DNA from: Ginglymostoma cirratum
Taxonomy: Eukaryota
DNA length: 64,000 nt
Assembly (NCBI GenBank): GCA_024137785.1
Contig: JAHRHZ010000026.1
Coordinates: 9,974,857 to 10,038,856, forward strand
Direction: 5' to 3'
Position 1 is the first letter of the stretch. Each line of letters starts with the position of its first letter. This document shows positions 25,830 to 53,759 of the stretch, piece by piece. The notes beneath the pieces were generated by a model, which was not told the DNA's origin, ran no database searches, and worked only from the letters and a program-made list of their open reading frames with translations. Both the position numbers and the translations under genes were made by a program.

Positions 25830-25970
25830 TGTCCAAACTCATGGGCTTAACCTGTTTTTCTAATCAAGCTGTTCAAAGATGTAATGACCTACCTCTGGAG
25901 TGATGGGACTTGAACCCAGGCCTCCTGCTCCAGAGGTGGGGACACTATCACTGTGCCACAAGAGGGCCCC
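25830..25970 (-). mobile_element. tRNA-derived SINE head (a related fragment lies at ~19200-19290)
   Basis: Reverse complement reads gtggcacagtgatagtgtccc...cctgggttcaagtccc (A and B boxes). Confidence 0.65.
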
Positions 25971-26479
25971 AATAATGGGCTTAAAATATGGGTTTTGAGG
26001 AGCACCTTTAAAGGAAAGGAGATGGGCTGAGACAGCTGTTGGGGGGAGGGGGTGGGGGAAACAGGATTCCAGAACTTAAAGCCAAGGCTGAAAGCATGGC
26101 CACTAATGGTCCAAAGGAGACTCTGAAAGAGGTCAACTGGAGGAGATTAATGGTGAGGAACAGCAAATTCATAGAGGAATTGTAACACAAGCATGAAAGT
26201 TTTAAAAACAGGATATTGTGATCTCGGCGTCGGTATGTGTGCAATGGATGAATGAATTTTTTATGAATTAAGATATGGGGAGCAGTCTTGGATGAGATCA
26301 CATTTGAGGAGGATAGGTGGTGGAGATCAGCTCAAAAATTGTTGGGATGTTTAGTTTGAAGATGACATGAGCCTATTTTCTGTTGCAGCTAAGCTGTGAT
26401 ATGATGGAAGATTTGACCAGTGTAATGGAAGTGGAAGTTAGAGAACTTCACCTCATTGGTGCTTCTCATGACCACCTGC

Positions 26480-26670
26480 CATTTCAAAATTCTTTGCATC
26501 TAATCAAATACATTTGAAGTGTAGTCACTGTCAGAATGAAGGAATCATGACAGGCAGTATGCTCACAAAACTGTCATGAATAACAATGTAATAATGACCA
26601 AATTGCTGTTTTTGATGTTAACTTGGGAGATGAATATTGACCAGGACACCAGGACCAGCTCTTCAAGAGT
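26480..26670 (-). mobile_element. Ancient DeuSINE-like (AmnSINE1/SacSINE1-type) remnant
   Basis: tttgaagtgtagtcactg...aacaatgtaataatgacca...gatgaatattgaccaggacacca resembles the recalled antisense consensus of this superfamily. Family assignment is from memory. Confidence 0.55.
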
Positions 26671-28240
26671 GGTAGCTCTCGTGATGGATAAGGTAGGTGG
26701 TTGGTAGCACAAATCATGATTAAAAAGGTGGCTGCGATTGCAGATTGGTCCAGTTCAGCTTCAGAAAGTGGCTAGGCAGAGTAATGGAATTGGTGACACT
26801 GGAAGATGGAGACTGAACATTGTAGTGCGAATGCTCTGGCCTTCAGACATCAGCAAAATGGTTGACTCTTGTCTGTCTTCTGGGACCTCCTTGCAAGACA
26901 TTGAGTTTTCTGTAGCTGTTTGATACAGTAATGATACTGGACAGCTATTTTGCATTGGATTCGGATTCAAGAAGACATGGCCTGCTAACTCAATCTGTGG
27001 CAAAATTGGAATTGCCATCTCTCGGACTAGTCAAGCAGTAATCTGATACAGGCAAAGTTTTTAATGAGGATGCCTGTTACGCAGTGTTGCTGACTCTCCC
27101 ACCATTCGCTATTGTGTATCTCCTGTCCTGTTCACAGGGCCTTGGTACTAAGTGAGACTTTAATTTCTGTTGAAAAGAGTAGCTGTGTTGCACCACCACT
27201 TATCAAACTGGCTGAGTGCTGGAAGACATGGCTACCATACTGGGCTTGTGGCAGGTGGTCAGAGCAATAATTGCAGAGGGAGATAGTGCAGCTGGGCAAT
27301 AATCGCTGACCTTGCTAAAATATCTAAATCCAGCAAATGAATGAATGAATACAAATGGAACTTGAGAAGGGAGGTGTGTGTATGCCAAAATAAGAGAATT
27401 AATCCTTGGGCGGGCATACTGTAAAAATGGGGAAGATGATTCATTGCAGGAGGTTCTCTTGCTATGACTGGATAGATAAGAATGGACCCAGGAGGTGCCC
27501 TGTCCAGTTGAACAATGAAAATGGGGTAATGGAGGTTAGTGTGACAAACTGCCAGAAGTTGGAGGTACAGAAGGGTCTGGGTGAAGTGTGTGCGTAGTAA
27601 AGCACGATCAGAGGAAATCTTAATTGTGTTTAAATTAATAGTTAAGGGGGTCTTACTGAAGAGACTATTTGCAGAAGTTTGCTTTCCCCATGGCTGAAGC
27701 CCTAAAAATACCACTGTACAGAAGGTGAGAGTCCCTCCTGTTGAGAGGTGTGATCTGGCACTATGCTTTGCTCTCTCAAACCTCTGCTACTTCTCATCTC
27801 TGTCATATTCTCTCTGTGAGAGGGTTTTACATCCGCCTCTGTTGCATTCCCTTCTCTGGGGCCCAAATGCTTTTCTTAATGTACTAGAACGTGGTAAGGT
27901 GGTTGCCCTGTTCCATGACTAAACTAGAAGGTTTGCTGTTGAAAGCTGGTCAGTAGTGATTTTCTGCTGACTTTTTTGAGTCCTGTAATCTAGAGATCAA
28001 AATTCAGTGATATCCCACAGATTCTTGTTGCTGTTGGGCGCATGTCTCTAATTTGTTGTTTAAGGTATTTATTCCACAATTACAATTGATTTTGCAACTG
28101 ATGATGTGAAACAACTTGCTAAAATGACATACCTCACTAATGTTTACTCCTCAACCTGCTGACATAATTTTGGCTCCCAAATTCTGCTTTTCAACTGTAG
28201 GATTGAGATAATGAGTTGGCAGTACTGACCGTGTATTCAA

Positions 28241-28923
28241 TTTTGAATTACTCTGCAGATGTTTCCAAATGCTGTGTACTTAAATAGTTCAATGAATGTG
28301 TAATTCTTGTGTTCACCTGTGGACATGGGTGTTGCTGGCTGGGCCAGCATTTATTGTTGTTCTCAAGGGAAACTAGGGAAGATGGTGAGTTGCCACCTTG
28401 AACCACTCCAGGCCTGGTATTATAGGTAGACACAGTGCCATTAGAGAGGCAAACACAGGATTTTGACTTGGCGATAGTGAAGGAAAGGCAGTATTTTCAA
28501 GTCAGGGTAGTGAGTGGCTTGGAGGGGATCTTGCAAGTGGTGGTGTTCCCATATATGTACTGCCCTTGTCCTTCTAGATGGAAATGGTTGTGGGTTTGGA
28601 AGGTGCTGTCTGAGGATCTTTGAATTTCTGCAGTGCATCTTGTTGGTAGTGCACACTTGCAGCTGAGCATTGGTGAAGAGACTGGATGTGGAGGCAGTCA
28701 AGTGAGCTGGATGGTGCCTTGAGTGATGTTGGAGCTGCATTCATCGACTTTGGGGAGTCAGGTGAGTTACTCCCTGAATAATTCCTAGCCTCTGACCTGT
28801 TCTTGTAGCTACTGTATTTATAACATAAACTGAAGTTTTGAATTACTCTGTAGATGTTTGCAAATGCTGTGTATTTAAATAGCTCAGTGAATGTATAATT
28901 CTTGTGTTCACCTGTGGACATGG
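28241..28923 (+). repeat. 88-bp direct duplication (28241-28328 and 28836-28923)
   Basis: ttttgaattactctg...gttcacctgtggacatgg in both copies, 6 substitutions counted by eye. Confidence 0.92.
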
Positions 28924-29040
28924 ACACTTAGATTGACTGACTGTTACTGGAGATAGTCATTGCCTGACATTTGTGGTGTGAATGTTACTTGTCACTTTTC
29001 AGACCAAGGTGGAATATTGTCCAGGTCTTGTTGCATTACT
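28329..29040 (-). mobile_element. 3' part of a CR1/L2-group LINE (same family as 1-1800 and 53760-54290)
   Basis: gctgggccagcatttattg...caggattttgac...cttctagatgg is shared with 53840-54290, and 28970-29035 matches 235-300. Confidence 0.7.
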
Positions 29041-30238
29041 GGACACAGCTTATTTTTAACTATCTAACAGTTGATTGTAATTCGAGTTTTTCCAGAGCTG
29101 CAGCCTAAGCTTTCCAATGAAAATGGATTGTGTTACTGCTTGTAAGTTGTTTGCTATAATCCAGCCTGTTTCCCAGGTACAACAATACAAAGGGGAGGGG
29201 AATTTAAAGTTTGTGTTTGCACTGTTCTGAAGGGGAATTCACACACTCTTGAGATTTCTGTTACTGCCTTTGCTGAACTAAAACTCTCGATTGAAACATT
29301 GGTGCAGAGTTTTATTCGATTTTACCAGACTCTCACCCATTTTAGAATTTAAATACTTTTGGTGGAGAAGCTGAGCTTTTTGGTTTAGTATCCTCTGCCT
29401 CAGTAATGTTGCTGAATTTGCAAGTGAAGAAAAATGTCTAGTTGTGGGGAAAAATGGTTTTGTATGTTTGAGGTGAAAATTATTTGCTGACTGGTGATTA
29501 GCAGGTACAGCACTATTTAGCATTTGAAAATAGGTGTGACGTAACTATTGCTGAGAGCTTATACATAGGTGTTGGAGGTGTATCTTTTTCTTTGTTACTG
29601 CAGGGTCGTCATGCGTAAATATTTAACTTTGAGATTTATTATAAGAGTTTGTGTCCCATAATTACCATTGTTCTTCAGTGGCTTCTGTATACAGAAATAT
29701 GAGATTGGAGGTAATGTTTATTTTGCTGTACGTTGTGTTGTGCACATCCGGTTTGTTCAAATATTTCTTGTATCTCAACGTAGTGAGTGCTGGTGTTTTT
29801 GGCAGATATTTGAATAAATGGTCCATAACCTGAGGCTGGTTTTACAGGGAATTCCTCACTTTTGGGGCTATTTCAGTAGATGCAGTCTCTGGCTAGAGAG
29901 GACAAGCCAACCAAATCCTGATTTGTAGTCTGCTTAGTGTATGCATTGTATAGTTTCATAGTTGTCTATACATTGAGCTGGGTGCTTGGTTGTAAATTGA
30001 CTGTGCATTGATACTTAGTGGGGGCCTGCTTCCTGTTACTATTCTAGTGACTTTGTTCAGGGCCTCGCTTCCTGTTTGTATTTGGTTATGCTGCATCAGG
30101 GCCCAAGCATCCTGTTTGTGTTATGCCTTGATGGGGCCCTGGTATCCTGTTTTACTGAGCTTAGTATTTATTTTCTGTTATACAGTTTAGAAAAAAAAAT
30201 TCAGTATGTTACCTATAGTGCAAATAATTTTTGTTACA

Positions 30239-30317
30239 GAGATAACAAGGTATGGGGCTGGATGAACACAGCAAGCCGAGCAGGAAAGCTTGACGTTTCG
30301 GGCCTAGACCCTTCATC
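30239..30317 (-). mobile_element. Half-copy of hammerhead-bearing element, subfamily A
   Basis: gagataacaagg...gacgtttcgggcctagacccttcatc flanked by TSD tgttaca (30232-30238 and 30318-30324). Confidence 0.8.
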
Positions 30318-30859
30318 TGTTACATCTACTTCAATCCAAAAGCTGCTGCTTTCAGGATATTGAGCACCTTCCAGTTGAGAACTTAGTGTTGTGTCAAAGG
30401 CTGTTTTAATAATTTTATACATTCTCACACAAGGCTGCGAGCCACTGATCTGTTGGACTGTTACCGTTCTGCCCATAACGTTCCTTGCATCAATAATTTA
30501 AAATATCAACAATTCAAGCCCAGCAGTCGATTGAGGCATTAAACCCTTGTTTGGGATTTTGGGGACTAGTTGCAGAGATCCCTTCAGGTTTTGGGGCAAG
30601 TGATTATTTTTATGATTTGACCTGCAAACAGTAAATGTTCTGTTGATTTTGGGATAGGGTAGAAGAGAAGGAAACCATCTTCAACCATTTATAACATTAG
30701 AATACAGCTCTTCACTTCTAAATGATGACCAAAGAGTGCCACCCATTTTTCTTTGTCCTGGTCTCTTGCTCAGACACCAATCCATAGGCCAGAGTGATTC
30801 CTCAACCAAATAGTCTTTCTTTCTGTATTGGCTAGCTGTTTAACTGGACGGTGGACTTG

Positions 30860-31157
30860 GAGTCATACGGCACGTAAACAGGCTGTTCAGTCCAACTCGT
30901 CTTCGCCAACAAGATAACCTAAACTGATCTAGTCTCACTTGCCACCAATTGGCCTGTATCCCTTTTAAACCCTTCCTATTTATGTACCCTTCCAGATACC
31001 TTTCAAAAGTTGTAATTGTACGTGCTACCACCACCTCTGGCAGCTCGTTCCATATAATTATCATCTGTGTGAAGACGTTGCCCCTCTCACCTTAAACCTA
31101 TGCCCTTAAGTTTCACACTGCCCTACCTTAGCTATTCACCCTATCCATGTCTCTTAT
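30860..31157 (-). mobile_element. CR1 LINE 3' end
   Basis: ORF 30840..31064(-) contains WNELPEVVV.A.TITTF.R.L..Y.NRKG, the CR1 ORF2 C-terminus. Confidence 0.85.
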
Positions 31158-31405
31158 AAAGTGTTTGTGAGCAGTTCACCCTTAATACAAGCTGGTTGGG
31201 TAATCATTTGTCTGGATGGTTGAAGGATAATTCACTGTTAGCATCTATTTCCATTGTGTAAATTTATTGATAGTTTTAAAACCCACATCCACTCTCGTGG
31301 AATCAACTTTTTTTCAGGCAATGAGGATGTTGATGTGAATGAATTCTTATGCCTATGGCAATGGTTCAAGTTGATTGGGGTATAGAATAAACCAAGTATC
31401 GGCGA

Positions 31406-31733
31406 GGGGAAGGCAATGGCCTAGTGGTATTAATGCTGGTTTTTTGAACCCAGAGACCTAGGTTTTTTTTTTTTGGAATCCAGGTTCGAATCCCACACAG
31501 CAGATGGTGGAATTTGAATTCTAAATATCTGGAATTAAGAATCTAGTGATGACCATGAATCCATTGTTGATTATCGGAAAAACCCATCTGGTTCACTATG
31601 GTCCTTACCTGGTGTGGCCAGCATGTGACTTCAAATCCTCAGCAATGTGGTTGACTCTCAACTGCCCTCTGGGCAATAAATCCAGCCTGGCCAGCGATGC
31701 CCTCATCCTGTGTTTGAATAAAGAAAAAAAAAT
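31406..31733 (+). mobile_element. tRNA-derived SINE
   Basis: A box TGGCCTAGTGG (31417), B box GGTTCGAATCC (31483), A-rich tail; homologous to 34758-35136. Confidence 0.85.
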
Positions 31734-32200
31734 GTAGGTGTATGCTTTGATGAAGATGAAATCTTGGAATAATAGTTTTCACTCTTGTATTTAGCTGTCT
31801 GTAGTATAGATATTCTGTTTTTTCTAGGTTTCTATGATTAAAAACTGTTGAAACTGAAAATAAAGGGTCAAAACTTCAACCATTTCCATTGAATAAAAAT
31901 GACCTTTTACTCTGTACTTTAAACTTGGGTGTAGGTCATGAGAATTGATGAAAATGCTGATGTGAAAAAACTAACAGTTCCATTGGAGGGAAAACTGTTT
32001 AAATGCACAAGTCGGGGACATTGGAAATGTGGGCTAGTGTGTGAGTGAGAGGTTTTGAAGGACGATTCACACATTGTGGGATCAAGATTGCCAAACAGTC
32101 TTGGAGTGATTAGTGGTGAGGAAGGAAGTAGGTGTTAAAGGATGTTTTTGGGCTTCCTGCAGCGTTAATGATCTCTTTCTGCAGTAATTGACTCTGCTGC

Positions 32201-32213
32201 TGACCTCTGACCT
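32201..32213 (-). promoter_or_regulatory. Perfect DR1 nuclear-receptor element (AGGTCA-G-AGGTCA)
   Basis: tgacctctgacct read directly. Function is untested. Confidence 0.45.
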
Positions 32214-33854
32214 CCCGTGAACAGCAAGGCATGTGCCACTGTCGACTGTGCAAAAAGTATGGTTGCCGTGGCAATTTGCTGAGCCAATTCGATGTGTCAC
32301 CTTTGAAAATGCATTGTTTTCGTTTAGTAAGAGCATTACCATGTCTGCAAGTCTCGGACTGTAACCATCAAGGGCAATTAAGTGTAAATTTGTACTGATA
32401 TTTTACTGTTCATTTTTGGGAAAATCCAAAGTATGAATTGAATGTTTGTGTCAGCAGTTCACCCTTTACCCACCCATTATCTTTTGTCTGGATGGTTGTA
32501 GGCTAATTCACTGTTAGCATCCATTTCACTTGTGTAAATTTATTAATGACCATTTTAAAACATACTTCCACTCTGCTTGAAAAAAGTTGATTCCATTCAT
32601 GTGGATGTTGATGTGGTTTAACCAAATACCTTAATTTCTGTTTTGCAAAGTCTGTTACTTCCTATAATGGCTTTTAATCTGCTTCAAAATTGTTAAATTT
32701 GATTGAGAAGTTCCACAGGGTTCTTTTACTGAATTGGGGCCTTCTGAGTTCATTTTGCTCTGACCAAATGTTGTGCCAGTTCTGGTCAGCTGCTGCTCAG
32801 AATATGTGTGCAGTTGCTGTATAGAATTAGATTTCTGCTATTTAAATTAAATTGTAAATGCTTGTTGTGGGTGTAACCAATGGTTAGGGTCAAATGGTGA
32901 TAGATTTTTTTCAAAACCAATTTTGTCCCAGGCTTACAGTTCCTCTGAAGTGTTGGTGTTTGTTCTGTATTGAAATGGATGGTAGGAGAATTCCATTTTT
33001 AGGAAATATTGCTAATGTTTCTTTAAATCTGTGCAGTCTCAAGCCTATCAAAAGCAATTCTTTGAGCTGAGTGATAGGCTTTTACATTCTTGTAAATGGC
33101 TGCTGTCCTATCCACAGCCAGCAAGGTACATTGATGTATTCCTCCATGCAAATGGTTAGTGTTATTAAGCTGTGAATTTGAGAAAAGCTTGAAATAAAAG
33201 GGGTTCTGAGCTGATTAATAGTTGTGTTGTAATGAGTATGCAGCTCGTGAACAAACACTTGACGATTCACATCCACCCAGCTGGTGTTTTTGAAGAGGAT
33301 TTGTTTGAGAAATTGTTTATTACAGAGCTTGATTTCCACTATACTACTCTATAACCACTTTTTCCTGTGTTTTTGAGGATTTATACCACAGACGTTAATC
33401 AGTTGTGAATTACAAATCTTGTCTCCACATCATTTTGTTATGATATAAATTTGTTGCCTTGTGGAGAGGCAAAAAGAAATAGGAAGACTTACATTCTTGA
33501 ATGATGTGAGGTGGTGACACAAATGAAAGCTCTTCATCGTATTTTGAAACTTTCACTGTTAAATTGTGCTGTACCTACTTCAACTAATGTGCATTCAGTT
33601 AGATGTCTACAATTAAGTTTGAGTTGCTGTCCACTGTGGAACCTGTTCCATCCTTGTCTTTCCTTTATCTGCGCTTTAGCTACAACATGAGCCATTTGTC
33701 TACACATATGATCCTGAGGTGTTAGTATGTGCCTAGGGGGTTATATTTGGGCTTTCACTGAAACTTCCAGGTTTGTGCTCCCATGCTTGAATTTTAATTG
33801 ATTTCACAGCCTGGGTCTGCGTTACTTTGCCATGCTAATTCCTTCTGTTAAAAA

Positions 33855-34740
33855 TTGTTAGAACATAAGAACAGAAGCTACATGATTTAGTCCTTGAAAC
33901 CTGTTGTGCCATTAATTTTCATTTTTGGTTGTGTGCTTAACTCCATTTAATCATTGTTGCTCTTAACATCTTTGTACAATAAATTTTTTGTCAATCTGAC
34001 TTGAAAATTTGCTTCCACTGTGATTTGAGGAAGTGTTTTAGATTTAGCAACTTGATTAAATCATTCCTCAATCATTTATAAACTCTAAGGAAGACAGGCC
34101 AACTTGCTTTGGCACAGCTATATTGCATCTGCTCCAAGGCCAACGTGGCCTTCCTGAGGTGGAGGTTACTGTACTATTACTCCAGAAAGTCTGTATAAAA
34201 CTGAATTATAATTTCCTCTCTAAATGTCAAAATCTTAGTAATTATTTGAGTATTGTTTAAATTTGTCAATGGCCATTTCTGTGTCACCAGTTAAATCAAT
34301 TTGCTGCTTCACAGGTCTTTTACCAGAAAAGAGAGACCCCACGTGAACTCCATCTGCCATATTTTTGCCCACACGTTTAGCCTCTTTGTTCTGTAGTGAC
34401 CTTTTGCCTAACATTCCACAATTTGCATTGGGTCCCATCTTGGGGTTATCTTCAGATATGGATATATTATCCCTCCATCTGAGTCAGGTGAACATCAGAG
34501 GCGCCAGTAGAGATCTTCATGGTTGAGATTCCCCTCTTCCCCCTCGCAAATAATGCAGTGATATTCACAAGTTTCCATCCAATGGCATAATTCCTGAAAC
34601 AGAATTTTGGAAGAATTGTGTCCAACATATGCCATTTCCTCAGCAATTTCGACTCATTGAGTTGGAAACCATTGCGTATATGGATTGATCTGTCTTATTT
34701 TCTCAGTTACCATCTTTAAAATAAATTCTTGCAGAGTTCC
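33855..34740 (-). mobile_element. Old CR1 LINE fragment
   Basis: Begins with agaacataagaacagaag (antisense CR1 tail), followed by decayed CR1-like blocks. Confidence 0.5.
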
Positions 34741-34757
34741 TTTTTAGATTACATTGT

Positions 34758-35136
34758 GGGGAGGCAGGGGAATATTGATAGTGTCACAGGACTAGTAACC
34801 TAGAGACCCATACTGTGGCTTTGGGGTCATGAGTTTGAATCCCGCCACAGCAGGTGGTAAAATTTGCATTCAACAAAAATCTGGAATGCCTAATGGTCAC
34901 CATGTAATCATGTAGGTTGTTTAAATCCATTCTGATTTCCCAGTGTTCTTTCAGGAAGGTAATCTGTTGTTCCTTTCCTTACATGCTCTATATAAGACCC
35001 ACAGCACTATGGTTGATTCTTAACAGTCCTCTGAAATGGCCCCTGCAAGCTACTGATTTCAAGGGGCAAATCGGTATGGGCAGTAATGCTGGTAGAGTCA
35101 GTGGTGGCCACATTCCACGAACAAATAGTAAAGAAA
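34758..35136 (+). mobile_element. tRNA-derived SINE
   Basis: B box-like gagtttgaatccc; body homologous to the 31406 copy. Confidence 0.75.
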
Positions 35137-36029
35137 TATTCCCTTGTGCTGCTGGTAATTTGTCTTCTCTCTAGTGTGAAAATTTATACTTATCATTAAT
35201 TTGCCAAATGTGTCATTTTCTTATAATCAACTATCATCTTTTTCATAGCTGAGAACTGGCTGATCTTTGTCCAGCACTGCAAGGTATGTCCGTGCAGCAT
35301 TTGTTTGGATGTTCAGCCATTAAATAGTTTGAAGTTACATGAATTACTTTGCCTTACCCAATTAATCTTGGTTTGATATGTTGGCTGATACACAAACACA
35401 TTTAAATGCTAATTTCTGAAATCTCAAATCCATACTTTGGATAACGTGCCATTTAATTCAGAAATAGTGCTTTTGCCACTTGCACTACAGGCTTTGCCAG
35501 TGTGATAAATTGGAGTTTACAGGATCCTTTGACACTGGTGTATATGGTTTAAATGAATGATAAATTCATTAAATTCTGATGACTGTTGGTAAATCATTAA
35601 ACAATTAGAAGTTATTTGAAGTGTTTCGATTTTCAGTAATTGCTTCACTTATTGTCCTGTGAGAAATTGATTTCTGACTCTGCAGGCTGAAGTCTGTGTA
35701 TAGTGAATGTACTGCAGCCTTGGAAGGAACATGGATATCCAGTGGAATCTATAGGTTGAAAAACTTTAGCCAGCGCAAGTGAGTCTGAATTATAGACGTT
35801 ACAATTGTACTGTGATTTCAATCACCTCAATGTGTAGCTAAAGTCACTTCCAATGATAACTAGATAAGGACAGTAAATACCTTCACCAAAGGTAATCGTG
35901 GACCTGAAATATAAAATTTCCAAAAACAACTACCCTACTTACTCTGTATCATCTCTCCATATTCGTGTCCTCTTTGTGCATCACTTCGGGCTTCCCTGTA
36001 TTGAATCCTACATCATGATTACTTTATTA

Positions 36030-36281
36030 AAAACAGAGTTAACGCTTCGCGTCTGCTGACCCCTCCATCCGACAGAAAACAGGTACTTGATGGAAGGCAC
36101 AAAGATAATTCTCCTCATCGCTCGTTATTCTAAACTCGATAGAGCACTGAAGAAGAATGGAGCATTTCTGAAGAAGGATCTAGGCCCGAAACGTCAGATT
36201 TCCTGCTCCTGTGAAGCTGCTTGGCCTGCTGCGTTCCTTCAGTTCTGCACCTTGATATCTTGAAACATTAACTCTGCTTTC
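36030..36281. mobile_element. Subfamily B element with a subfamily A half-copy (36165-36260) nested in its hammerhead-like core
   Basis: Outer arms cagagttaacg / cattaactctg; inner tttctgaagaaggatctaggcccgaaacgtc...caccttgatatct. Confidence 0.7.
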
Positions 36282-37071
36282 AAGATGGCGCTGATAGTAT
36301 CCGTAGTCCGTTTTGTTAATACAAAACAGTCACAACACATGTCACTATGTGCTGATCAGTGGCTTTAATGTTATTCTACTGCTTTCCTGGAGGAGCTGCT
36401 ATTTTTGCTTAGATTGCAGCTGTCTTATACCTCACCATAATATCTAATATTAGAGTATAGGTGGCTGATTTTACTGGTTTGAGGATGACAGGACACCAGT
36501 GTCCTGGCTTACGGTGTGTGCAAGTGTGATTTCTAGTAGAGATACTGACCAATGATCAAACAGCCTGGTTTCTCCTTTCCTAGGAATATGAAACTGACTA
36601 TAGTGCCCCTGCCACATGTCACTCTGAAGGCATATTTTTAATCAACTTAGACTGTATAAAATGTTTTCAACCCATGAGCAACTGCAAGGTCTGTGTAAGG
36701 TACTTGTGTGGATTGTTGTTTTTACATTAGCAGAAGGAAATAGCTTGTAGTAATAGTACAGAAAGTGCCTCCATCTTCTATCTTGAGAGAAGTGAAATAT
36801 CCTGGCCTATCTTTCCTGTTAGGTATATTCTCACATTCGAAATTATTTTTGTATTTACTTCAGTGTCTCTATACTCTATAAATATAGTAATTCAGAACTG
36901 CAGAATATTCCAAATTTGATGTCACCAAGGTTTAATGTAAGATTAATGCAACTTCTAGAGGAATAGAATTGCAAAGTAGAGAAGTGTAACTTAACATTAT
37001 AAATAAACAATAGAGCACTCAACCTTGCTTTGAACCATCCAGCAAACCACCAAAACACAAGTCAATGCTAG

Positions 37072-37285
37072 AGATAGTAGGAACTGCAGATGCTGGAGAA
37101 TCTGAGATAACAAGGTATCGAGCTGGATGAACACAGCTGGCCAAGCAGCATCAGAGGAGCAGGAAAGCTGACGTTTCGGGCCTAGACCCTCCCTCAGAAA
37201 TGATTTCTGAAGAAGGGTCTAGGCCCGAAACGTTAGCTTTCCTGCTCCTCTGATGCTGCTTCGCCTGATACACCTTGTTTTCTCT
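37072..37285. mobile_element. Best-preserved palindromic hammerhead-bearing element, subfamily A, with 11-bp TSD
   Basis: ~37140-37200 is nearly the exact reverse complement of 37204-37265 around a tga loop. TSD gtcaatgctag at 37061-37071 and 37286-37296. Confidence 0.9.
37207..37236 (+). ncRNA. Putative minimal type I hammerhead ribozyme motif
   Basis: CTGAAGA (37207-13), extra A, stem II GGGT-CTAG-GCCC (37215-26), GAAA (37227-30), CGT-T giving palindromic ACGT and a GUH triplet. Stem I is very weak and activity is untested. Confidence 0.6.
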
Positions 37286-37389
37286 GTCAATGCTAGCCTG
37301 TCTGGGCTACCACTTTCTGTGGCGTCTCCTCAAACTTCTTGCGTTAATCAAATGGGGGTTGTTAAAATTATGAAAAATTGAGAAACAAA

Positions 37390-38270
37390 GACAATGTGTA
37401 TTTATATTGCGTCTTTCGAATAGTAAAATTTTAAATGTCTGGGCATTTCACAGACAATTAAAAACGAATGATGATGCCAGGCTACATAAGGGGATTTTAG
37501 GGTAAGTAAATAAAAGTTTAGTCAAAGGAGGGAAATGAGGTTGAGGGGTGGTGAAACTTGGGGAGAAAATTTCAGAGCTTATAAAGGTTTGAGCTCAAAG
37601 GAAGATTTTAGAGCTTATGAAGTCTTAAGCAACTCAGCTTGCCACTTTTGATGCAGTTAAATTCAGTTGCTTGAGAAGTCAGAATTGGAGGAACACTGAA
37701 AAATCAAAGACTAGCAGGTTAGAGGAGGAACCTGGCGATGGAGAGGGGTTGAGCCATGGAACCATTTTGAAAAATGGTATGAATTTTAAAATGTTTCTAA
37801 TGAAGTACAAGTGTAGGTCACCAAGCACTGGGTGAATGAACAAGACTGGTCTGAGTTAGGACATGGGCAGCAGAATTTTATATGGCATTTTTATAGCGTA
37901 GACTGTGGAGGCTGACCATAAATAAGTCAAGAGGCAAGAAAGACATGTATGAGGATTTCAGCTGATAAATTGAGGCAAGAGTTGAGCCCAGTGATGATGT
38001 GGAGGTGGAAATGGGCCATCTTAGTGATGATGGATGAATGAGGTCACAGGCTTATCTTGGTCAAGTGTGACACTAAGGTTGTGAACAACTCGGTTCAGTT
38101 TCAGACAGTTACCAGCGGAGAGATGCTTTTGGTGGCTAAAGGGTGGAGTTTGCGGTGATGCCCAAAGGCACTGGCTGTGGTTTCCCCTTATTCATATGGA
38201 AGACCTTTCACTTAGCTGTTAGTGGATGTTGGGCAAGCGGTTCAACAATTCAGACGGGAAGAGGTGAGAT
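37390..38270 (-). mobile_element. Very old L2-like LINE remnant
   Basis: Purine-rich antisense L2-like sequence starting tttatattgcgtcttt, with gtgacactaaggttgtgaac and agtggatgttgggcaagc blocks. Confidence 0.45.
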
Positions 38271-39689
38271 GGTATTGGTTCTGCAACTAGAACCCTCTGG
38301 GACAGGAGGGTATGATTGAATAGGAAAACCAAAATGAGAGGGATTTGATTTTTTTTTTATTAATGCTGGTTTTTTACCTTCATTGTTCTTTCATTTTCAA
38401 ATACAGGCTATCTGATTATCCTCATTTGTGAACAGAGAGATCACATTGAGGGACTGCACATTGTAGCACCTAAGCCGACGTAACCAGTTGCTATCTTAGT
38501 CGGTACTTTCACAGTATTTCTATGCGTACAAGTGTACATTTATCCATATGTGGCTTTTAACTGTTGGGACTTTTTGTCTTAGCCTGAGTTGGTTTAAAAT
38601 CAGATTTGAGAAGCAGAAGTAGTGTACTTCATTACCTACTGTTGAGCTAGTATAGAATTTTTCAGTCAGGTATAATTGAGTGAGAAAGGAGAATATATTG
38701 CAGGATGGTGAAGTCCCTGAATGATTAAATTTAAATGGGCCTGTTGTTTGGTATCTTAGGCTGTATTTGGGACTGAAGGGGTTAATGAAGCTGGAAGTGG
38801 TGGCCATATAGGAATATTAATGAATCGATTGACACTTATTTTTGGAAATTCTCCTTGTGGAAGCATGTTGAAATAGACTAGGATTTGCTGTTCTTAGAAT
38901 TTTTGCATCAAGCCTGCTTTTTATGGCTTTGGTCATGCAGCTAGTTGTATCTTATGAGGAATGACCCTGGGAATGGAAATCCATTTGGGTTGCATCCACA
39001 TAGCTTATTGCACGCTAGTGTTTCAGGAAATTGATGCCAGGTCATGGTTTACCACAAGCACGACATGAGTCTTGCCCTCCAAGTTAGTGCGTGTTTATAA
39101 GCCCACTAAATTCTATTAGACTTTATTTTGAAATTAATGACCACCTCCTTGTGTGTTGAAAGGAACTGTTTTATTTGATAGTCTTAACATTGAGCCTGGA
39201 AGTCACAACTCAGTAATTGGTTTGAGCTTCGACTAATATCTTTGGATAGCCCGTGTAATAAAGCTGACTAGTTGTAATGTTTGAAGGTGGTCATCTACTC
39301 CTTTTCGTAAAAAAAAAAGTTGTATTTGTGAAGTATTTCTGGTAGGAAATGAGCCTAAATTGTCAGAGCAGAAGTGATGGACTCTGAATCCTGCATCCCT
39401 TTTGCAACCTTTGGATCATGTTAAGTGATCAATCAAAGAGAGGATAGTCAATCTGGCATTTTTGACAGAAGCTGAGTAATTTGGATTTTCTCAGTGTAAT
39501 GTTAAGCTGCAGGAAATCTTGACTCTTCGATTATTTAATTTCTAGAAGAATGGTGGTGGTAGTGAGTTGAAAGAAGTGTGGATAGATGAAGCTAGAAGCA
39601 GCGTGGTTATCTAGGTGATGTTACTGAAGGGTAGCCTGTAGATGGAAAAAATGGAGGCCAAGGATGAATACTTGCTAGAATTTAGCATA

Positions 39690-40250
39690 TGAAAGTACAG
39701 GAATCAGATTGTACTCTCTTTGAGCCAATTATGCCATTTATTTTGATCATGGCTGATATAAACATTGACTTGTTTATTCATTTTTGTTTCATAATGCTTG
39801 GTACTGTTACATAACAGGGATCTATTGTTCTTGGTCTTGAAATCTTAATTTGACCCCAGCATCCAGAACCTTTTGGAAGGAGAGAATTCACTGTTCCAAT
39901 GCTCCTTTTATGAAGCTATGCTTCCTGAATTGCATGACCTGAATATTTAAAATTGCCCTTGTTGCCTATGTCGTAGCAAATTGCTTTATGAATTTACCCT
40001 ATATAATTCTTCAATTTTTTAAAAAAGCTGATTGATCTCTTATCAATCTTCTCACCCTGGTCTGTGCACTCAGTCTTGTAACTTTAACCTTTCGGTCTTT
40101 GGTACTGTTCCAGTGAATCAGTGCGGTAATCCTCCAAAGTCAGTATATTCATCCTGGGGCATGACGTCCATGTTGAAAGAAATACACTTGTTGGGATCTG
40201 ACCAAAGTCCTGTTCAACTGGAACATTACATTTTTTTGTTCCAGCTGTCT
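39690..40250 (-). mobile_element. Old CR1 3' fragment
   Basis: Antisense CR1 tail (gatcatggctgat, gaccccagcatcc, gaccaaagtcctg). Confidence 0.5.
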
Positions 40251-40672
40251 TGAAATTACACCAACATTCCACAAGTCATTTCCATTTTTATCCTTTGGAA
40301 TCCCAATCTCTCTCCTCCTTTACACTTCTTTTCTCATCATTTAGAAATATTCCAGTTTATATTTTTATAATTTGGAAGCAAGTAACTTCACACTTTCTCT
40401 GCCACAGGTTTTCCTATTTATTCAGACTTGAGCGTTAGTTCAGAAAGTCGTTGACATGCAAATCAATTTACTTGATTCCTAAATGTGATATATTTAACAA
40501 TTCATATGAAGTATAGCAATTTGTTACAGTTCAATGAATTTAGTAATCTGCACTCCACTCTGAACATCCTGGTGTAACAGTTTTTATTGTATCTTGAGAG
40601 GATGCAGCTTGTCACTGAGCCCCTGTGTGGCCTAGAGTTTTGAAGTCTGTTTATATATTGGCTTAAAGTAAC

Positions 40673-40865
40673 ATACTGTGGATGCTGGAAAGCAAACACA
40701 ATGCTGGAGAAACTCAGCAGGTCTGACCGTTAATGTTTTGAGTCCAGTATGACTCCCCTTCAATTTCTCTGTAGAGTCATACTGGACTTGAAACCTCAAT
40801 TCTTGTTCCTCTCTCCATGGATGCTGACAAAACTCCTGAGTTTCTCCAACATTGTGTTTTGTTTT
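40673..40865. mobile_element. Palindromic element, subfamily B, degenerate core
   Basis: agtccagtatgactc / gagtcatactggact and cacaatgctggagaaactcag / ctgagtttctccaacattgtg inverted pairs. Confidence 0.8.
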
Positions 40866-41054
40866 ATATTTTGCATTTTGGGAGTTCAAGATAGGTTGCA
40901 ACTAATATCACAACTGGTGTGTGTATGCAAATTGCTGAATGTGACAGGACAAGTTGAGAAGACCATCCTTGGTGTCAAGTAGGGCTGCAGAGGTGGTTGT
41001 GCTAAAACTTGATAAAACACTGACTAGCCTGAGGCAGCTTGCATTTTATATTAA

Positions 41055-41190
41055 AGAAAAACAAAGTGCTGGATAGGTTTGAAACATTAACTCTTTTTCC
41101 TCTCTGCAGATGCTGCCAGATTTACTGAATTTCTGCAATGCCTTTGTTTTTGTTTCAGATCTCCAGCATCCTCAGTTCTTTGTTTTACTT
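41055..41190 (+). mobile_element. Subfamily B element, mostly right arm
   Basis: gaaacattaactct...cagatgctgccaga...ccagcatcctcagttcttt, homologous to 2161-2260. Confidence 0.7.
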
Positions 41191-42639
41191 TTGCATGTAT
41201 GTTATGTTATGTTGTTTTATGTAGTAGAATGTTCTCATTTCACAATTTGAAATTATAGGATTTAGTGAAAGATATCATGAGTTTCTGGCCCAGTATCATG
41301 GGACTACAGAACCATACATGTCAAAATGCTATGTTTGCAAGTGCTGTTAGTTTATTTATTTAATGCTGAGTTAAAATACATTCATGTTTATAGGCAGAGC
41401 CTTAATTTGTTAGAATATTTCATCGTTCTGTTGAAAGTGAAATTTTTCAGTTGTAGCGCATTCTTGCGCCAGATTCCACGAAGGATGGGAATAAATTTAA
41501 ACACCAAATATATAACGCAAAAAGTGACTGAATCAGGTTTTAATGTCACTGAGTCATATTTGGATTAAACATTAAAAATTTGGGCTACCAAGTTTGGAAC
41601 ATCTGAAAAGGCCGATAACAATACTTGATTCATGGGAGCCATTGACACTGAAATGCTAAGGGGTATTTTGAGTAAAAATGCACTAAGGCAGCTGGTCCTT
41701 TTCAGATGGCTCAAACTTCCTAGCTTGAATTTTTGATAGAGTTCAAATATGACTTGGTGACATTAAAATCCGATGGAGACACATTTTAATTTCTTTGTGT
41801 TATATGTTTGGTGTTTAAATTCATTCCCATCCTTCCTGGAATCTGCCTCTTGACCACAAGGTGCTTGATACTTACTGTTATGGTTCAGGCTTGGCCAGCC
41901 ATGAGAAGTGCCCTTTGTTTTGAGGGAATGTGTACGGTGAAATGGTTTTTGGCAATACAAGCTCACATGCTTAAGGTGAAAAGATTTGACTTTTCATTGC
42001 TGTTGCACCCACAATGTCTGGCAAACTCAAAAGACTTGAATTCGTAGATCTAAAATGAATGTGTATCATGTTGCCATTATGTGTTTTCAACGCTGTTGAT
42101 CTTCACATTCCCTGTTGTCACCAGCAGACCTTGTCCTTGAGAAAAAGTAGTGATGTCTGTTGTTAAAAGTATCTCCATTATGGCTCGGAAACCAGCTGAT
42201 CCATTGAATTTCCATATGATCGACCTCTGCAATCCCTCGTACATCTTTATTTCACCATCCTAGGGAACTATAAAAGTAAAGGTTGGTATGCTGTGCACGG
42301 TGATGATAAGAATCTGAGAAGGGCAGCTTAATAGGGGCAGTAGCCTACATGATTCAAGTTGTTTTTTTCCCCGTGAATACTGTGTGGCAGTGGTTGATGT
42401 TTTGGAGATGGGCATCATGTACAGAATGAATATCAAAATTTCTATTTATAAGCCCCTTAGTTGCATTTGTCTCTGAGCTGAAATAGATGCTGGCTTTAAT
42501 TCTTTAAGAAAGTTAAACACCAGGACTTAATTGAATTTAACTGGAATTGGTGTTCCAAATTTAGAGAGTTTTAATTTCAGAAGACCTTCTTTAATAACTA
42601 CACTCCTAAACACTTGCAGATTACAAGGAGCATTTTGAC

Positions 42640-43810
42640 AATCGTATCCATGTTCATCAACAAAGATCTGATTACTCTGCCATTTTTCAACTTCTGCCCC
42701 ATAGCCCTGGAGGCTGTGGCAATGCAAATGAATGTTTAAATACTATTTAACTGTTGAGAGTTTCTGACTTCAGGTGGAAATGTCCAGACTCCTTCCCACC
42801 CTGTGAAAAATAATTCTCAAGTCTCCTTTTAGCCTTCTGCCTTTTACCTTTAAACCCATGTCCCCTGATTGTTAAACTCCTCTACTGATGGAAACTGTGC
42901 CTTCTATCCACCCTAATTAATCCCCAATCAATCTTACACACCTGTTAGGTTCCCTCTCAACCTTTGCAGCTCCAAGCAAAACAACCTCAGCCTGTGCACA
43001 GTCAGATCCTTCCTATAGTGTAGAGACCAGAACTGCTGTCGGGTTAGCTCATAACTGGAATACCGTTTCAAACATTGCAGCATAACCACCTTGCTGTTGT
43101 GTTCGGTGCCTTGGCTAAAAATGGCTGGTGTTCCATTTGCCTCGTTAACCACATCTACCTGCCTTTGTCTGTGAATAAGCTTATCAAAGTCCTCCTGACC
43201 TTGAGTATTTTTCAGGATCTTGCCATTCATCGTGTAATCCCTTGCCTTGTTTGCACTGCACAAGGGCATTACCTCATTTTTCTGTGAATTCCTTTGTCAC
43301 TACTTGGTCCAGCTGACCAATCCATTGGCAAACTTCAGAAAGATATCAATGTTCTTGCTATTTATTTACCATCCTACCAATTTTATCATCTGTGAATTTA
43401 TCATTTCCACTACATTTTAAGTCCAGATCATTTCACTACACCCAGAGCCGGACCCTGCAAAACCCCAATGTGGAAGCTGACTTCCAGCCGCTCAACCAAT
43501 TTTATATCCACTGTGGCAAATTGACTTGAAGCCTGTGGGCTTTCTTGGCTGGTCTTCTATGAGCAGCTTCATTGAAAACCTTGCTAAAGTCCATGTGGAT
43601 AGGATTTACATGCATTGGTTCTCATTATCACTCCTGGTTATCTTCCTGTCTGACAATCCCTCACTGATCCATGCTGACTATCCCCCATTAATCTGTGTCT
43701 CCAAATGCAGCCATATTCTGCCCTTCAGAATTCTTTCGAATTACTTCACTACTGAAGTTAGCCTGGCCTGTAATTTCCTGGTCTATTTCTTCCTTCCCCT
43801 TTTTAGTTAT
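42640..43810 (-). mobile_element. CR1 LINE fragment
   Basis: ORF 42934..43269(-) retains QFWSLHYRKD...LRLFCLELQRLRGNL (CR1 QFWSPHYRKD / LFSLE.RRLRGDL). Confidence 0.8.
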
Positions 43811-45164
43811 GAGAAATCCTGAATGTTTTGTACTAAATTCTCCAAGGTCCAGGAACTGTATTCCAAGCTAGTAAAGCAAAGAATATGATCTGCTTATTTA
43901 TACATGCGTGGTGTTATACTTCACTGTGGTAATGCAGTGTTAATTGAGAGCCCCACTATTCCCAGGGTGATCCCAAAAAGTTAGATTTTAAAAAGAGCAG
44001 AATTCCTGAATTTTCCCCTGGACCAGCATAGACCATGTTTGTGTGTTTTAACAAGAATTTACTATTTATTACAAATAGTAACTATATAGATGAACATTGT
44101 TGAGGCATCGACACATAACTCTACTAGTTAAAATTCTGACCCACTTAGGCTGCCACTCAAGACACATACAGAACATAGAACATAATATAAATCAGGCCCT
44201 TCGGCCAACAGTGTCTGTACTGACCATGTGGCTATTCTAAACTAATCCCATCTGCTTGACACAACAGAAAAATGGATATTATGTAAGAGGGAAAGACTGG
44301 TTGTTCAATGGTCCCTGTCTACAGGGTTTGTTGAGATGATCTTTTTGCTGCTCAGCGCTGCTTCTCGATCATTTTTTCTTTCCGTCCCTTCCTTTTTTCT
44401 TTCTGTCCCCCTCCTGCTTGTACTTGTTTGCAGGATGAATGGGGTGATTGGCGTGCAGTTAATAAGGTTTCTGACTTATTAGTTAAAGACTACATTTGCT
44501 GATACCAGTGCATATGCACTATGCTTCACTTTAATTCTCACATGCTGTCCTGCTCCTCCCCACCCCCCAAAAATCCAGTCCTGTCCCTGTGTCCAAGGTA
44601 ACATGTATCCCTTCCCTGCACGTACCCTGTGCAAATGATGTAAATTTTGCATGATGATATATTGGAATGATGTTTTGTATACATGCTTGTTTCCAGGTTA
44701 GGGCACATATACAGTTGCAGGTGTCAGCAGACATGGCCTTGATTAAAGGCTTGCAGCAACTGACAAGGGAAAATAAACTACTTTAAGGCTTGAGATGCTT
44801 TTTACTGCAGGTAAAAAACAGATTCCTTTCCAAAGTTCTGATGGCTTACAACTTGTGTATTCACATTCCCAAGCTGCTCAGCCAGCTGGGAGCCAATCTC
44901 AGTCGTTGGCACGCAAGCACAAGGCCCCTGCCATTGATAACTGGTTATCATTTCACAGACCAGTCAGCTACTTGTTACTGGTTAGATCTCCATTTGTGCA
45001 GAGCACCCTCCTGGCTCCAGCTAGTTTGTAACTAGGCTTTCCCCACTGCCTGAACCAACTGCTTTGTAAACAGCATTTATAATAAGTGTTAGGTAACTTG
45101 CATTTTAAAAAGGGCAATAACGCTTCAGCAGTACTTGGCTTTCAAAACAGTTCTTTCCCATTTC

Positions 45165-46560
45165 AGTCGTAGAGTCAGTTGTACAGCATGGAAATAGACC
45201 CTTTGGTCCAACACATCCATGCTGACCAGATATCCAAAATTTATCTAGTCCCATTTGCCAGCATTTGGCCCATATCCCTCTCAACCCTTCGTATTCATAT
45301 TCCCATCCGGATGCCTTTTAAGTGTTGTAACTGTAACAGCCTTCACCACTTCCTCTGGCAGCTCATTCCATATTACACATCAGCCTCAGCATGAAAAAGT
45401 TCCCCCATGGTCCCTTTTTAAATCTTTCCCTCCTCACCTTAAACCTGTGCCCTCTAGTTTTGGACTCCCCCATCCCAGGAAATAGACCTTGGCTTTGGAC
45501 ATTATCCATGCCCCTCATGATTTGATAAACCTCTGTGATCACCCCTCTGCCTCCGACACTCCAGGGAAAATAATCCCAGCCTATTCACTCTTCTCCCTAT
45601 AGCTCAAACTCTCCAACCCTGGCAATATCCTTGTAAATTTTTTCTGCACCCTTTCAAGTTTAACAATATCCTTCCTGTAGTAGGGAGATAGGAAGCGAAC
45701 ACAGTATTCCAAAAGTGGTCTAACCAATGTCCTGCCCAGCTGCAACTTGACCTTCCAGCTCCTATACTCAATGCACTGACCAATAAAGGCACACACCGCT
45801 TTCACTATCCTGTCTACCTGTGACTCCACTTTCAAGGAACTGTGAACCTGTACTCCAAGGTCTGTTTGTTCAGCAACACTTCCTCAGACCTTACCATAAA
45901 GTGTATAAGTCCTGCCCTGATTTGCCTTTCCAGTATGCAGCACCTCACATTTATCTAAATTAAACTCCATCTGCCACTCCTAGGCCCATTGGCCCACCTG
46001 ATCAAGATCCCATTGTACTCTGAGGTAACCTTTGCTGTCCACTACAATTATTGGGTGTGACCTGCAAACTTACTAACCACAGCTCCTACGTTCACATCCA
46101 AAACACTATATAAATGACAAAAATCAGTGGACCCAGCACTGATCCTTGTGGGCACTGCTGATCACAGGTCTCCAGTCTGAAAAGCAACCCTCCATCACCA
46201 CCCGCTGTCTCCTATCTTCAAGCCAGTCCTGTATGCAAATGGCCAGTTCTCCCTGTATTCAATGTGATCTAACCTTGCCAACCAGCGTACCATGAGGAAC
46301 CTTGTTAAACGCCACATTGAAGTCCATATTTATCACTCCCACTGTTCTGCTTTCATTAATCCTATTTGTTACTACTTCAAAAAACTCAGTCAAGTTAATT
46401 AGACATGATTTCCTAAGCACAAAGCCATGTTGACTATCCCTAACCATCCTTGTCTTTCCAAATACATGTAAATCCTATCCCTCAGAATTCCCTCCAGCAT
46501 CTTCCCCACTACTGATGTCAGGCTTATGGATCTGTAATTCCCTGGCATTTTCTTACCTTA
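45165..46560 (-). mobile_element. Relatively young 5'-truncated CR1 (HER1-like) LINE
   Basis: ORF 46259..46447(-) SQHGFVLRKSCLINLTEFFE...DF..AF.KVPH and ORF 45581..45835(-) TLVRPLLEYCVRFLSPYYRKDIVKLERVQKKFTR. Confidence 0.92.
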
Positions 46561-47954
46561 CTACTTAAATAGTCCACAATCAAAAATACAGAAAACACGT
46601 AGATGTGGTCTTTGCAATGTCTGCATTGATACTTTAATGTGTGCATGCATGCAGCCATAGTAGATCAGTTAGATTGCTCCCTTGTCATGCATCTAAAGTG
46701 ATACGGAGTGTAAACTCTACTCTGAACTGGTACAAGTTGAATACATTGGAAAGTTTTTTGTTCTCTCTTTTCTTGGTGCCATGAGCATGGACGACTTCTG
46801 TTCCCTGCATTAATCGGAGATCTGTTGGAAGTTGTACTTCTCTGTGCATATGAACTTCTCATTTACATGTCTCGGCCATTGGTCACTCATCACCAAGGGG
46901 CAGATTATATGATTGGAGTACTTACACCATATGATCACACATAGGCACTATTGTATTGGAAATTGGCACAGCTGTTTCTGGCTATTGCAGCAATCATGTG
47001 AATGCCCCTAACTACCAGCGCAGGAGCACTGCCTTTTAAGTATTTCAAATTGTGCTGCAATTGTGGAAATGATCCTGCTGATCTGCTACAGCTGAGCTGC
47101 AGGTATAACATACTTTTAAAGATGAATACTCGTTATGTAACATTTGAATGCAGAGCAATGGTTTCAATTTCCTTGTTTCCCTCAATGTTTTACTTATTGA
47201 AAACAACTAAAAAGCTGCTGTGTAGAGAGCCATTGTTGGGTTCCTGCTGCACACAGGGTTTTGTAAAAAACGCATTGTTTTCTTTTTAAAAATACTCTAT
47301 TGTTCTTGTGGAGTAGTGAGCTGTAAATAGTTCGGCCCTTTCTCTTAAGGCACACATGCCTTGGAGACAGAGCAAATAGTCACTTTGTAATTATACTGGG
47401 GACAAGAACATTCACGTGTTGCTATCGTTTTGCTATTTTAAAATCCTTCTAGGTCAAAGTGCTTTTGAACTGCTTAGACTGCACAGTGTTTTCAGTTCCT
47501 CTATCAGAGGGTGACTAACTCATTCAGGATGCATGGGAATGTTCTGTAAAAAGTATGTTTATCTCCTCTTCAGCCTGGCTACCTACATCATAAATGGTGT
47601 TTGTTCAGTGGGGCTGTGAAACAACTGCTTGAGGCAGGGGGACACTGCCAAGGGGTTCACTGTTGACATATGGGTGGGTGAGGTAATGGATCTTTACTGA
47701 AACTAATTAGCTGCAAAGGTTTTGCAGTTTGCTGTCTTCATCCAGATAACGTTTTCACCAATGTTATACGTACAAACTTTGTGATTTGAGCATGGTGAGG
47801 AGTGAAGTATTTTAAGTGTTTTTCTTTGTAGGTGCTTTTTCATATATGCATTTTACTTTACAGATTCGGGGTTTTCTAAGGTCAACAGAATTGACACCTA
47901 GTAGAAATTGCAGTAGTGAATTAGCATTAGGCACTAAACTTGTAGTTTACCAAA

Positions 47955-49050
47955 TGAACAGGAGTAGGTCAATTGGCCCTTTGAGCCTACTCCTGCCACT
48001 CGATAAGATCATGGCTGATATTTTAACCTCGACTCTAAATTTCCCCAATAATCCTTCATCCCTTTTTGGTAATCAAGAATCTATCTACTGCTGCAAGAAA
48101 AAGTATGTTTAAAGGTTTATGCATTCACCGCTTTTTGGGGAAGTGAATTTCAATGCCACTCGACCCTCAAAACATTGTTCCTCCTCTGTCTTATATGGGC
48201 AACCCCTTATTTTTAAACTTGACCTCTAGTTCTAGATTCTCAAAAGGAAATATTCTTTCAGTATCTAATATGGTCAAGTCCCCGCAGGGTTGTATACGTT
48301 TCATTTAAGTCACCTCTGATTCTTCTGAGTTCTAGAGGATACAGGCCCAGCCTGTCCAGCCTTTCCTCATAAGGCAATCAGCTTATTCCTGGCTTTACTC
48401 CAGTAAACTCTCTCTGAACTGCTTCCAGCGTATTAATATTCTTCTGTGAGCACAGTGACCAGTACTACACAGTGCTGTAGATGCAGTTTTACTATGCCCT
48501 GTATTGATGAAACATAACCTACGTACTCTTGCATTCAATTCCCTTCTCAATAAGCCATTGCATCCTATTAGCTTTCCTGATTATTTACTGTTCCTGCATA
48601 TAACCACCTGCAATTCATGCATTAGGATATCCAGAGCTCTCTGCATCTGGTTGCAACCTCTAACCATTGAGATAACATGCTTTTTAAAATTCTTTCTGCC
48701 AAAATGGATAATTTCACATTTCCCCCACATTGTACTCCATTTGCCAGGTCTTTGCCTACTTGCTTAAGGAGCCTTTGGAGGGATATGGATCGGTTATGTC
48801 CTCCTCACAACTCATTTCCCTGCCTATCTTTGTATCATCAGCAAATTTAGCTGCCATGCATTTGGTCCCTTCATACAAGTCACTTATAAATTGTAAAGTT
48901 CAGGCCCTGGTAATGACCCCATGACACACCACTCGTGATGTACTGCTAGCCCATATATTCTTGCTAGCCATCTAGTACGCACACACGCACCCCTTTTATT
49001 TGCTACCATCTTTGAGGTATGTATCGGATGCCTTCTGGAAATTTCCATTG
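47955..49050 (-). mobile_element. CR1 LINE fragment
   Basis: Antisense tail aggagtaggtcaattggccct; tcatcagcaaattt is KFADD on the minus strand. Confidence 0.8.
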
Positions 49051-53679: not shown

Positions 53680-53759
53680 AATATTTTGTTGATTTGAGCT
53701 GAAAAGCTACTGATAAGTGGCAGGTAACAAAGACTTAGTCCTAATTTTTGTCATTCATA

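Follow-up and report, generated by a model that had tools for sequence, protein, structure and literature searches.

How did a short insert that folds back on itself, with a hammerhead-like motif on each strand, come to lie in an intron of the shark ARID1A gene, and is it likely to act as a ribozyme there? The window analysed here is a stretch of 64,000 nucleotides of Ginglymostoma cirratum DNA, and all positions refer to it. A preliminary description of the locus had interpreted the insert as two inverted termini of a Penelope-like element (PLE), retrotransposed rather than moved as a DNA-transposon MITE, and presenting a ribozyme motif whichever strand is transcribed. The anatomy reported below supports the origin proposed there, and the strongest sign of a PLE, a one-sided tail of 32 nt, had been missed; the availability of a ribozyme on both strands is not supported.

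Layout of the insert and its host gene

The ~215-nt insert described between perfect gtcaatgctag repeats was confirmed, with a length of 214 nt. The chance of finding perfect 11-nt direct repeats at the element borders is, as a rough estimate, ~7e-5. Between them lie two head-to-head copies of one unit of ~135 nt, arranged asymmetrically, with a 3' extension on one copy only. The parts are:

37061..37071, no strand: left target-site duplication, of 9-11 bp, since the final 2 of its 11 nt are also found at the 3' end of the element
37072..37103, minus strand: one-sided 3' extension of 32 nt (PLE 'tail'), unpaired, spanning the interval from the inner to the outer 3' end site
37072..37202, minus strand: tailed arm, the complete unit, starting 5 nt before hammerhead C3
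37202..37203, no strand: head-to-head junction; palindrome centre with one unpaired base
37203..37285, plus strand: untailed arm, starting 4 nt before C3 and terminating at the inner 3' site
37286..37296, no strand: right target-site duplication, a perfect copy of the left 11-nt repeat

We use 'tail' as defined for PLE insertions (PMC8557442, PMC11167929); that of the focal insert is found again at 9852-9884. The inverted arms (37139-37201 and 37203-37265) are 94% complementary with 1 nt between them, and the computed folding energy of the insert is about -145 to -148 kcal/mol for either strand (z about -16; none of 200 shuffles was equally stable). The fold-back reported around 37201-37203 therefore stands as far as the hairpin arms are concerned. 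It is not symmetric, with 37072-37103 left unpartnered and the plus arm short of 16 nt, which were lost in an internal deletion after about 37268; this arm stops 32-34 nt before the 3' end of the tailed arm. Nine substitutions were counted in the two arms, none of them common to both, and five of the differences from the family majority lie in the tailed arm. The two A>G changes in the minus-strand hammerhead motif (see below) might recall A-to-I editing, but this origin is unsupported, A>G accounting for only 3 of 26 changes. Matches of the insert to miRNA families in Rfam were to generic hairpin/miRNA models, scored below the gathering thresholds and were rejected.

The placement in ARID1A pre-mRNA was also borne out. 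Mapping with a shark ARID1A-like protein gave plus-strand exons at 16073-16270, 23777-23899, 24416-24529, 58432-58674, 61930-62013 and 63071-63271, which flank the insert on both sides. One of them (58432-58674) corresponds to residues 641-721 of PDB chain 6lth_L, and another has its best named match in Heptranchias perlo, at 93%. The insert lies in the following intron:

24530..58431, plus strand: host intron of shark ARID1A, ~34 kb

Sense and antisense family arms are intermixed in this pre-mRNA; for example, the antisense arm 37104-37202 is preceded by a sense copy at 36163, ~850 nt away. It is possible that long-range duplexes form between such interspersed arms, as they do between inverted Alus.

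One intact hammerhead core and one relic

Both motifs quoted in the preliminary description were located at the positions given there, and they differ in their state:

37205..37236, plus strand: minimal type I hammerhead motif, with an intact core (37207-37213), conforming to the published consensus (PMC4209133 Fig. S3)
37170..37197, minus strand: hammerhead relic, in which helix II and GUC are intact but two bases are changed, A9>G (37191) and A7>G (37193)

The plus-strand motif comprises a helix II of 4 bp (37215-37226), GAAA, a palindromic CG, a GUU triplet and a helix I of 2 bp, with a putative cut after 37234. The proposal of a minimal hammerhead with a palindromic ACGU thus holds for this motif. 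The loose pattern CTGANGA..GAAAC is by itself within chance (3 seen, mean 0.85, with 6 of 100 shuffles equally high), and we therefore adopted a full descriptor that follows the minimal consensus of PMC4209133, i.e. CUGANGA, a bulge, a helix II closed by G-C, GAAA, palindromic NN and UH. With this descriptor the plus-strand motif is the sole site in the 64 kb on both strands, and 300 dinucleotide resamples gave no match.

The hammerhead core requires A9. On the minus strand the core reads CTGAGGG, in which A9>G breaks CUGANGA, and the full descriptor finds no site there. In the consensus line for minimal hammerheads in the available text of PMC4209133, A9 is likewise invariant. The claim that a ribozyme motif is presented whichever strand is transcribed is not supported by the minus core; moreover, a dimer needs two copies of the same sense and the focal motifs lie on opposite strands, so that they cannot dimerise with one another. 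In both focal arms helix I consists of A-U and G.U followed by a mismatch, i.e. two contiguous pairs, against four pairs in the copy at 36168. A covariance-model search, proposed earlier as a check, brought no help to the ribozyme assignment: Rfam searched with an 801-nt and a 53-nt stretch returned no hammerhead family at E<=10.

Related insertions in the window

BLAST and nhmmer detected four loci of the focal family in the window (the focal insert and three others) and five loci of an older relative:

9753..9896, no strand: sister insertion, in which an untailed inverted arm lacking 14 nt is paired with a short tailed arm; a different junction; 11-nt duplication
30232..30324, minus strand: sister insertion consisting of one untailed arm, which shares the 14-nt deletion seen at 9753; 7-nt duplication
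36163..36259, plus strand: sister insertion; single untailed arm; core and GUC intact, helix II mismatch; no duplication found
about 2133-2262, 4540-4765, 40665-40865, 41055-41190 and 51380-51560: older diverged family, similarly built: the 5' edge carries the hammerhead, helix II is longer and the tail is related

These counts are small and come from a single 64-kb window; a weak older-family fragment at 36030-36072 (minus strand) was left out of the number of loci. The 14-nt internal deletion is identical in 9759-9832 and 30239-30317, which also have in common a G>A just after the cut site, and we therefore conclude that a deleted sub-lineage was amplified. Around the 36163 copy (36147-36285) the right flank resembles the GAAA-and-downstream part of the older unit (3 of 2000 random 36-mers were as good) and the left flank does so weakly (33% of the random 36-mers were as good); judging from these flanks, the copy may have been inserted inside an older-family hammerhead.

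The ends of the arms follow a simple pattern. Among the six arms of the focal family the 3' ends fall at two sites only, four at the inner and two at the outer, 32-34 nt apart. The 5' ends lie at -5, -4, -5, +2, +2 and +78 relative to hammerhead C3, i.e. between -5 and +2 in five of six arms, and none coincides with the cut site (+28); the hammerheads are uncut in the family copies. All five inverted pairs in the window, both families included, have a tail on exactly one side, and three of the five older loci are such pairs. Target duplications at the four family loci measure 11, 11 and 7 nt, with none found at the fourth, and 2, 5 and 1 nt of them also match the element end, so that in this small sample the fixed length typical of a DNA transposon was not seen. 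For the older family, candidate duplications of 5-9 nt in the AT-rich flanks were not counted.

A fixed fold-back element, as proposed earlier, is hardly the mobile unit, since junctions vary by locus and single arms insert with a duplication of their own. The junction is at -5/-4 relative to C3 in the focal insert and at +2/+78 at 9753, where each arm contains sequence that is absent from its partner. The single-arm copies in the window have no sequence in common upstream of the hammerhead, and no tandem (head-to-tail) copies occur among the four family loci.

A decayed inverted repeat of ~375 nt at 41470-41845, with 69% arm identity, is unrelated to the focal family and is possibly an old MITE.

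Is the plus-strand motif active in ARID1A pre-mRNA?

In ARID1A pre-mRNA the antisense arm is transcribed first and captures the plus-strand motif in a duplex of 63 bp; the computed probability of the helix II closing pair is <=1e-15 at all five transcript lengths considered. A free single arm also favours other folds, with a helix II probability of 1e-4. Minimal PLE hammerheads were reported not to cleave as monomers and to be weak as dimers (PMC4209133), and at the focal locus the predicted folding argues against self-cleavage as a dimer. Helix II with its loop (37215-37226) is almost self-complementary, which would allow an intermolecular duplex of 12 bp (cofold -27 kcal/mol). Such a duplex could compete with the classical dimer and not build it.

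An active or co-opted intronic ribozyme or hairpin affecting ARID1A RNA, for example through pairing of the plus-strand motif with the same-sense copy at 36168, would fit the intact core on the transcribed strand, the presence of that copy 1,039 nt upstream, and the smaller share of changes in the core and helix II (2 of 91 cells against 24 of 358 in the rest of the arm). However, this difference falls short of significance (p = 0.13, or 0.34 for the core by itself), and the 13 arms examined show no more covariation than shuffles do. The double-hammerhead fold reaches -1.7 kcal/mol at best against -6.0 for each free monomer, values that are indicative only since nearest-neighbour energies omit core contacts. 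In addition, the 36168 copy has a mismatch in helix II, and eight of nine Xenopus dimers tested elsewhere failed to cleave (bioRxiv 10.64898/2026.07.22.740005). We regard a functional ribozyme of this kind as highly unlikely.

It had also been suggested that the long hairpin competes with ribozyme folding and makes the insert tolerable. The hairpin does sequester the motif, but it is an unconvincing source of tolerance: three of four single-arm copies lie in sense to ARID1A without a hairpin (taking the start of the window as intron 1), and such motifs are not cleaved as monomers (PMC4209133). On these predictions, cleavage of ARID1A pre-mRNA by the plus-strand motif is unlikely whether the hairpin is present or absent. 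Most likely, this hammerhead is a passenger inherited from the parent element and silent in the pre-mRNA, because the antisense arm comes first, the motif is held in the 63-bp duplex, the element offers no same-sense partner and helix I has only 2 bp.

Coding content and protein matches

One open frame of the arm (41 codons) matched six proteins among eight candidates and 11 in an exhaustive search, making 14 distinct proteins. Thirteen of these (P0001-P0012 and P0014) are gene models from unrelated loci in which the reading frame runs across the repeat, and three of them also contain pieces of MIF, HAUS1 or plexin; P0013 is unrelated and was dropped. As only gene-model read-throughs were matched, we rejected the frame as a sign of a coding role. 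Automatic gene models take up the open frame of the repeat together with MIF, HAUS1, plexin or LINE-like pieces, giving rise to spurious shark proteins.

The read-through models nevertheless inform on the family. Three of the 13 cross antisense-to-sense head-to-head junctions that differ from the focal one (P0003 on 5 residues, E 0.02). Decoding helix II pair 4 from the read-through peptides (GLGPK versus xxDPK) gave U.G in eight and U-A in five of the 13, with pairing kept throughout.

A reverse transcriptase (RT) or GIY-YIG domain was found in none of the 14 protein hits, a weak absence as the collections searched contain no shark genome. Pfam gave no GIY-YIG match in 150 of the 153 stop-free window frames of >=70 aa (the three ARID1A exon frames were left out), and the Atlas provided no lead from the second arm frame (37 codons) or to an RT/GIY-YIG partner of the unit. 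Sub-cutoff RVT_1 matches at 21025-21339 and 46262-46474 are both far from any arm. The regions around them contain LINE-like remnants: at 21025-21838 (plus strand) the RVT_1 fragment is followed by an ALKBH8_N/DUF1891-type match, and 46262-46474 (minus strand) is a second weak RVT_1 fragment. Further LINE-like remnants form a repeat pair of ~950 nt with 70% identity (47956-48952 and 56488-57614).

Origin of the insert

From its sequence features, the focal insert is very probably an ORF-less inverted-terminus insertion of a PLE, a membership that rests on anatomy because a linked RT/GIY-YIG ORF was not found. The inverted head-to-head terminus, the one-sided tail of 32-34 nt with its two 3' end sites, and the short variable duplication are all present. 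The two-arm layout, the two 3' end sites, the one-sided tail, the variable duplications and junctions, and the uncut hammerheads are read directly from the sequence. PLE insertions often contain an inverted 5'-truncated copy together with a 30-40-bp tail at one end (PMC8557442), the tail being described also in PMC11167929 and PMC3846280. In rotifer examples the pLTRs lie head to head, only one of the two bears a tail, of 31 bp, and the target-site duplications measure 8-10 bp (PMC3846280). The protein of an anole PLE, modelled as a dimer, cuts and extends both strands, starts reverse transcription from two internal sites lying at the limits of the tail, and works on uncleaved RNA without requiring the ribozyme to act (PMC11167929).

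With this in mind, we consider it probable that the insert was dead on arrival, generated in trans by an RT/GIY-YIG protein of Penelope-like type and consisting of two head-to-head 3' terminal units only. According to this model, the 3' terminal unit of the parent would comprise the hammerhead and the RT-initiation region, two copies making up the whole insert. The endonuclease would nick both strands ~11 bp apart; one nick would prime reverse transcription at the outer start site, giving the tailed arm, while the other would prime at the inner site, giving the untailed arm. Uncleaved RNA would be the template for both cDNAs, which would end near the 5' edge of the ribozyme and then be joined head to head. 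This two-nick scheme is our own; the available text of PMC11167929 offers no explanation of inversions. Besides the missing ORF and the small copy numbers, two observations speak against this origin: the tight clustering of 5' ends (five of six arms) differs from what random 5' truncation would give, and the palindromic focal junction is also compatible with self-priming.

Fold-back self-priming would likewise start from a PLE, but a single cDNA or antisense template would prime itself at a palindromic 5' end and be copied back to the inner site. The focal junction is indeed a perfect palindrome with a 1-nt centre, self-priming was already proposed for palindromic PLE junctions (PMC3846280), and an older pair also meets at the ribozyme edge (4667-4672). 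However, single arms with their own duplication exist, and none of the nine substitutions is common to both focal arms. The arms at 9753 contain different parts of the unit, which favours two primers over a simple fold-back unless a later deletion is assumed, and we hold self-priming to be improbable. Another possibility is a pre-formed, non-autonomous fold-back master that amplifies as a unit, the variable copies being deletion derivatives of an unstable palindrome. The proximity of the 5' ends and of several junctions to C3, within a few nt, agrees with such a master, as does the 14-nt deletion common to two copies, by which non-coding sub-lineages do amplify. Yet no junction is common to any two pairs (two window pairs and three read-throughs), the older, diverged family has the identical layout, and a 63-bp hairpin would presumably be a poor RT template, so that we find a master of this type quite improbable.

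A MITE moved by a DNA transposase, with an incidental likeness to a hammerhead, would explain the long inverted repeat, the similar 7-nt motif that starts both ends and the two duplications of 11 bp each. This reading is largely refuted, and we judge it very improbable, given inverted repeats that are non-terminal on one side, duplications of 11, 11 and 7, single 5'-truncated arms, and the lack of any full-descriptor hammerhead in 300 resamples.

Turning back to a PLE insertion made from two primers, one may speculate further on the mobile unit itself. It might be a dedicated non-autonomous PLE parasite of ~135 nt, with an RNA beginning at the hammerhead's 5' edge, and each of its very many head-to-head pairs in sharks would then record a two-primer integration with cDNAs from different RT sites. 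The start of this RNA would represent a transcript start or a splice boundary, neither random truncation nor self-cleavage. We put this forward tentatively and think it rather unlikely as it stands.

Significance

Taken alone the focal locus matters little. It is an ordinary and probably dead fragment of a transposable element of known type; the window contains at least nine related, decaying insertions including this one, and all of the anatomy of the insert has been published for PLEs. The sole unexplained feature is the clustering of 5' ends at the ribozyme's 5' edge, neither at random nor at the cut site. If this clustering holds genome-wide, it would point to a dedicated short parasite RNA, in which case thousands of natural shark insertions would be at hand to decide the origin of PLE inversions and tails and the use of the ribozyme. 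The residual value is thus mechanistic, as the ORF-less pairs are the simplest form of inverted PLE ends and combine one-sided tails, uncut hammerheads and clustered 5' ends. A caution for annotation also follows, since gene models incorporate the element, which also looks like a MITE or a miRNA hairpin.

Comparison with known systems

Our literature search yielded no paper on this shark family, which may well be present in Repbase or Dfam. The closest parallels are EN+ PLE insertions with inverted pLTRs and tails (Penelope/Poseidon, Neptune and Naiad; PMC8557442, PMC3846280), which have in common with the focal insert the head-to-head 5'-truncated terminus, a one-sided tail of 30-40 nt, a short variable target duplication and a palindromic junction. 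Unlike them, the focal insert contains no ORF or internal region, and both of its arms end at the 5' edge of the ribozyme.

The plus-strand motif shares CUGANGA, one bulged base, G10.1-C11.1, GAAA, the palindromic CG and NUH with the minimal type I hammerheads of metazoan PLEs (PMC4209133). Its helix I is at the weak end, with 2 bp including one G.U against 2-6 bp published (our own reading of PMC4209133 Fig. S3). Minimal hammerheads paired on opposite strands ~100-700 bp apart, and one located at a PLE's inverted 5' end, were already reported in 2014 (PMC4209133). In the focal insert one of the two cores is mutated, and the available text of Fig. S3 contains no chondrichthyan row.

In the Poseidon element of Anolis carolinensis (PAc; PMC11167929), as here, a hammerhead lies shortly upstream of two 3' end sites, which delimit the tail, and the uncut ribozyme is kept. 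Reverse transcription of PAc starts at 111-118 nt and the cut lies 26 nt into the ORF, i.e. 85-92 nt by our own subtraction; the values here are 66 and 98-100 nt. However, PAc is autonomous and its ORF begins in helix II, whereas the focal unit has no start codon there and no protein link was found.

Class II MITEs are also short and non-coding, with a strong hairpin and a flanking duplication, but the focal family differs from them in its asymmetric ends, variable duplications and junctions, and single-arm copies. Animal non-LTR retrozymes, which have been reported from one chondrichthyan genome, are similarly short, non-coding, PLE-derived and dispersed as monomers with a type I hammerhead (bioRxiv 10.64898/2026.07.22.740005). 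Retrozymes are defined there by head-to-tail tandem units able to dimerise, whereas the family copies described here are single or head-to-head.
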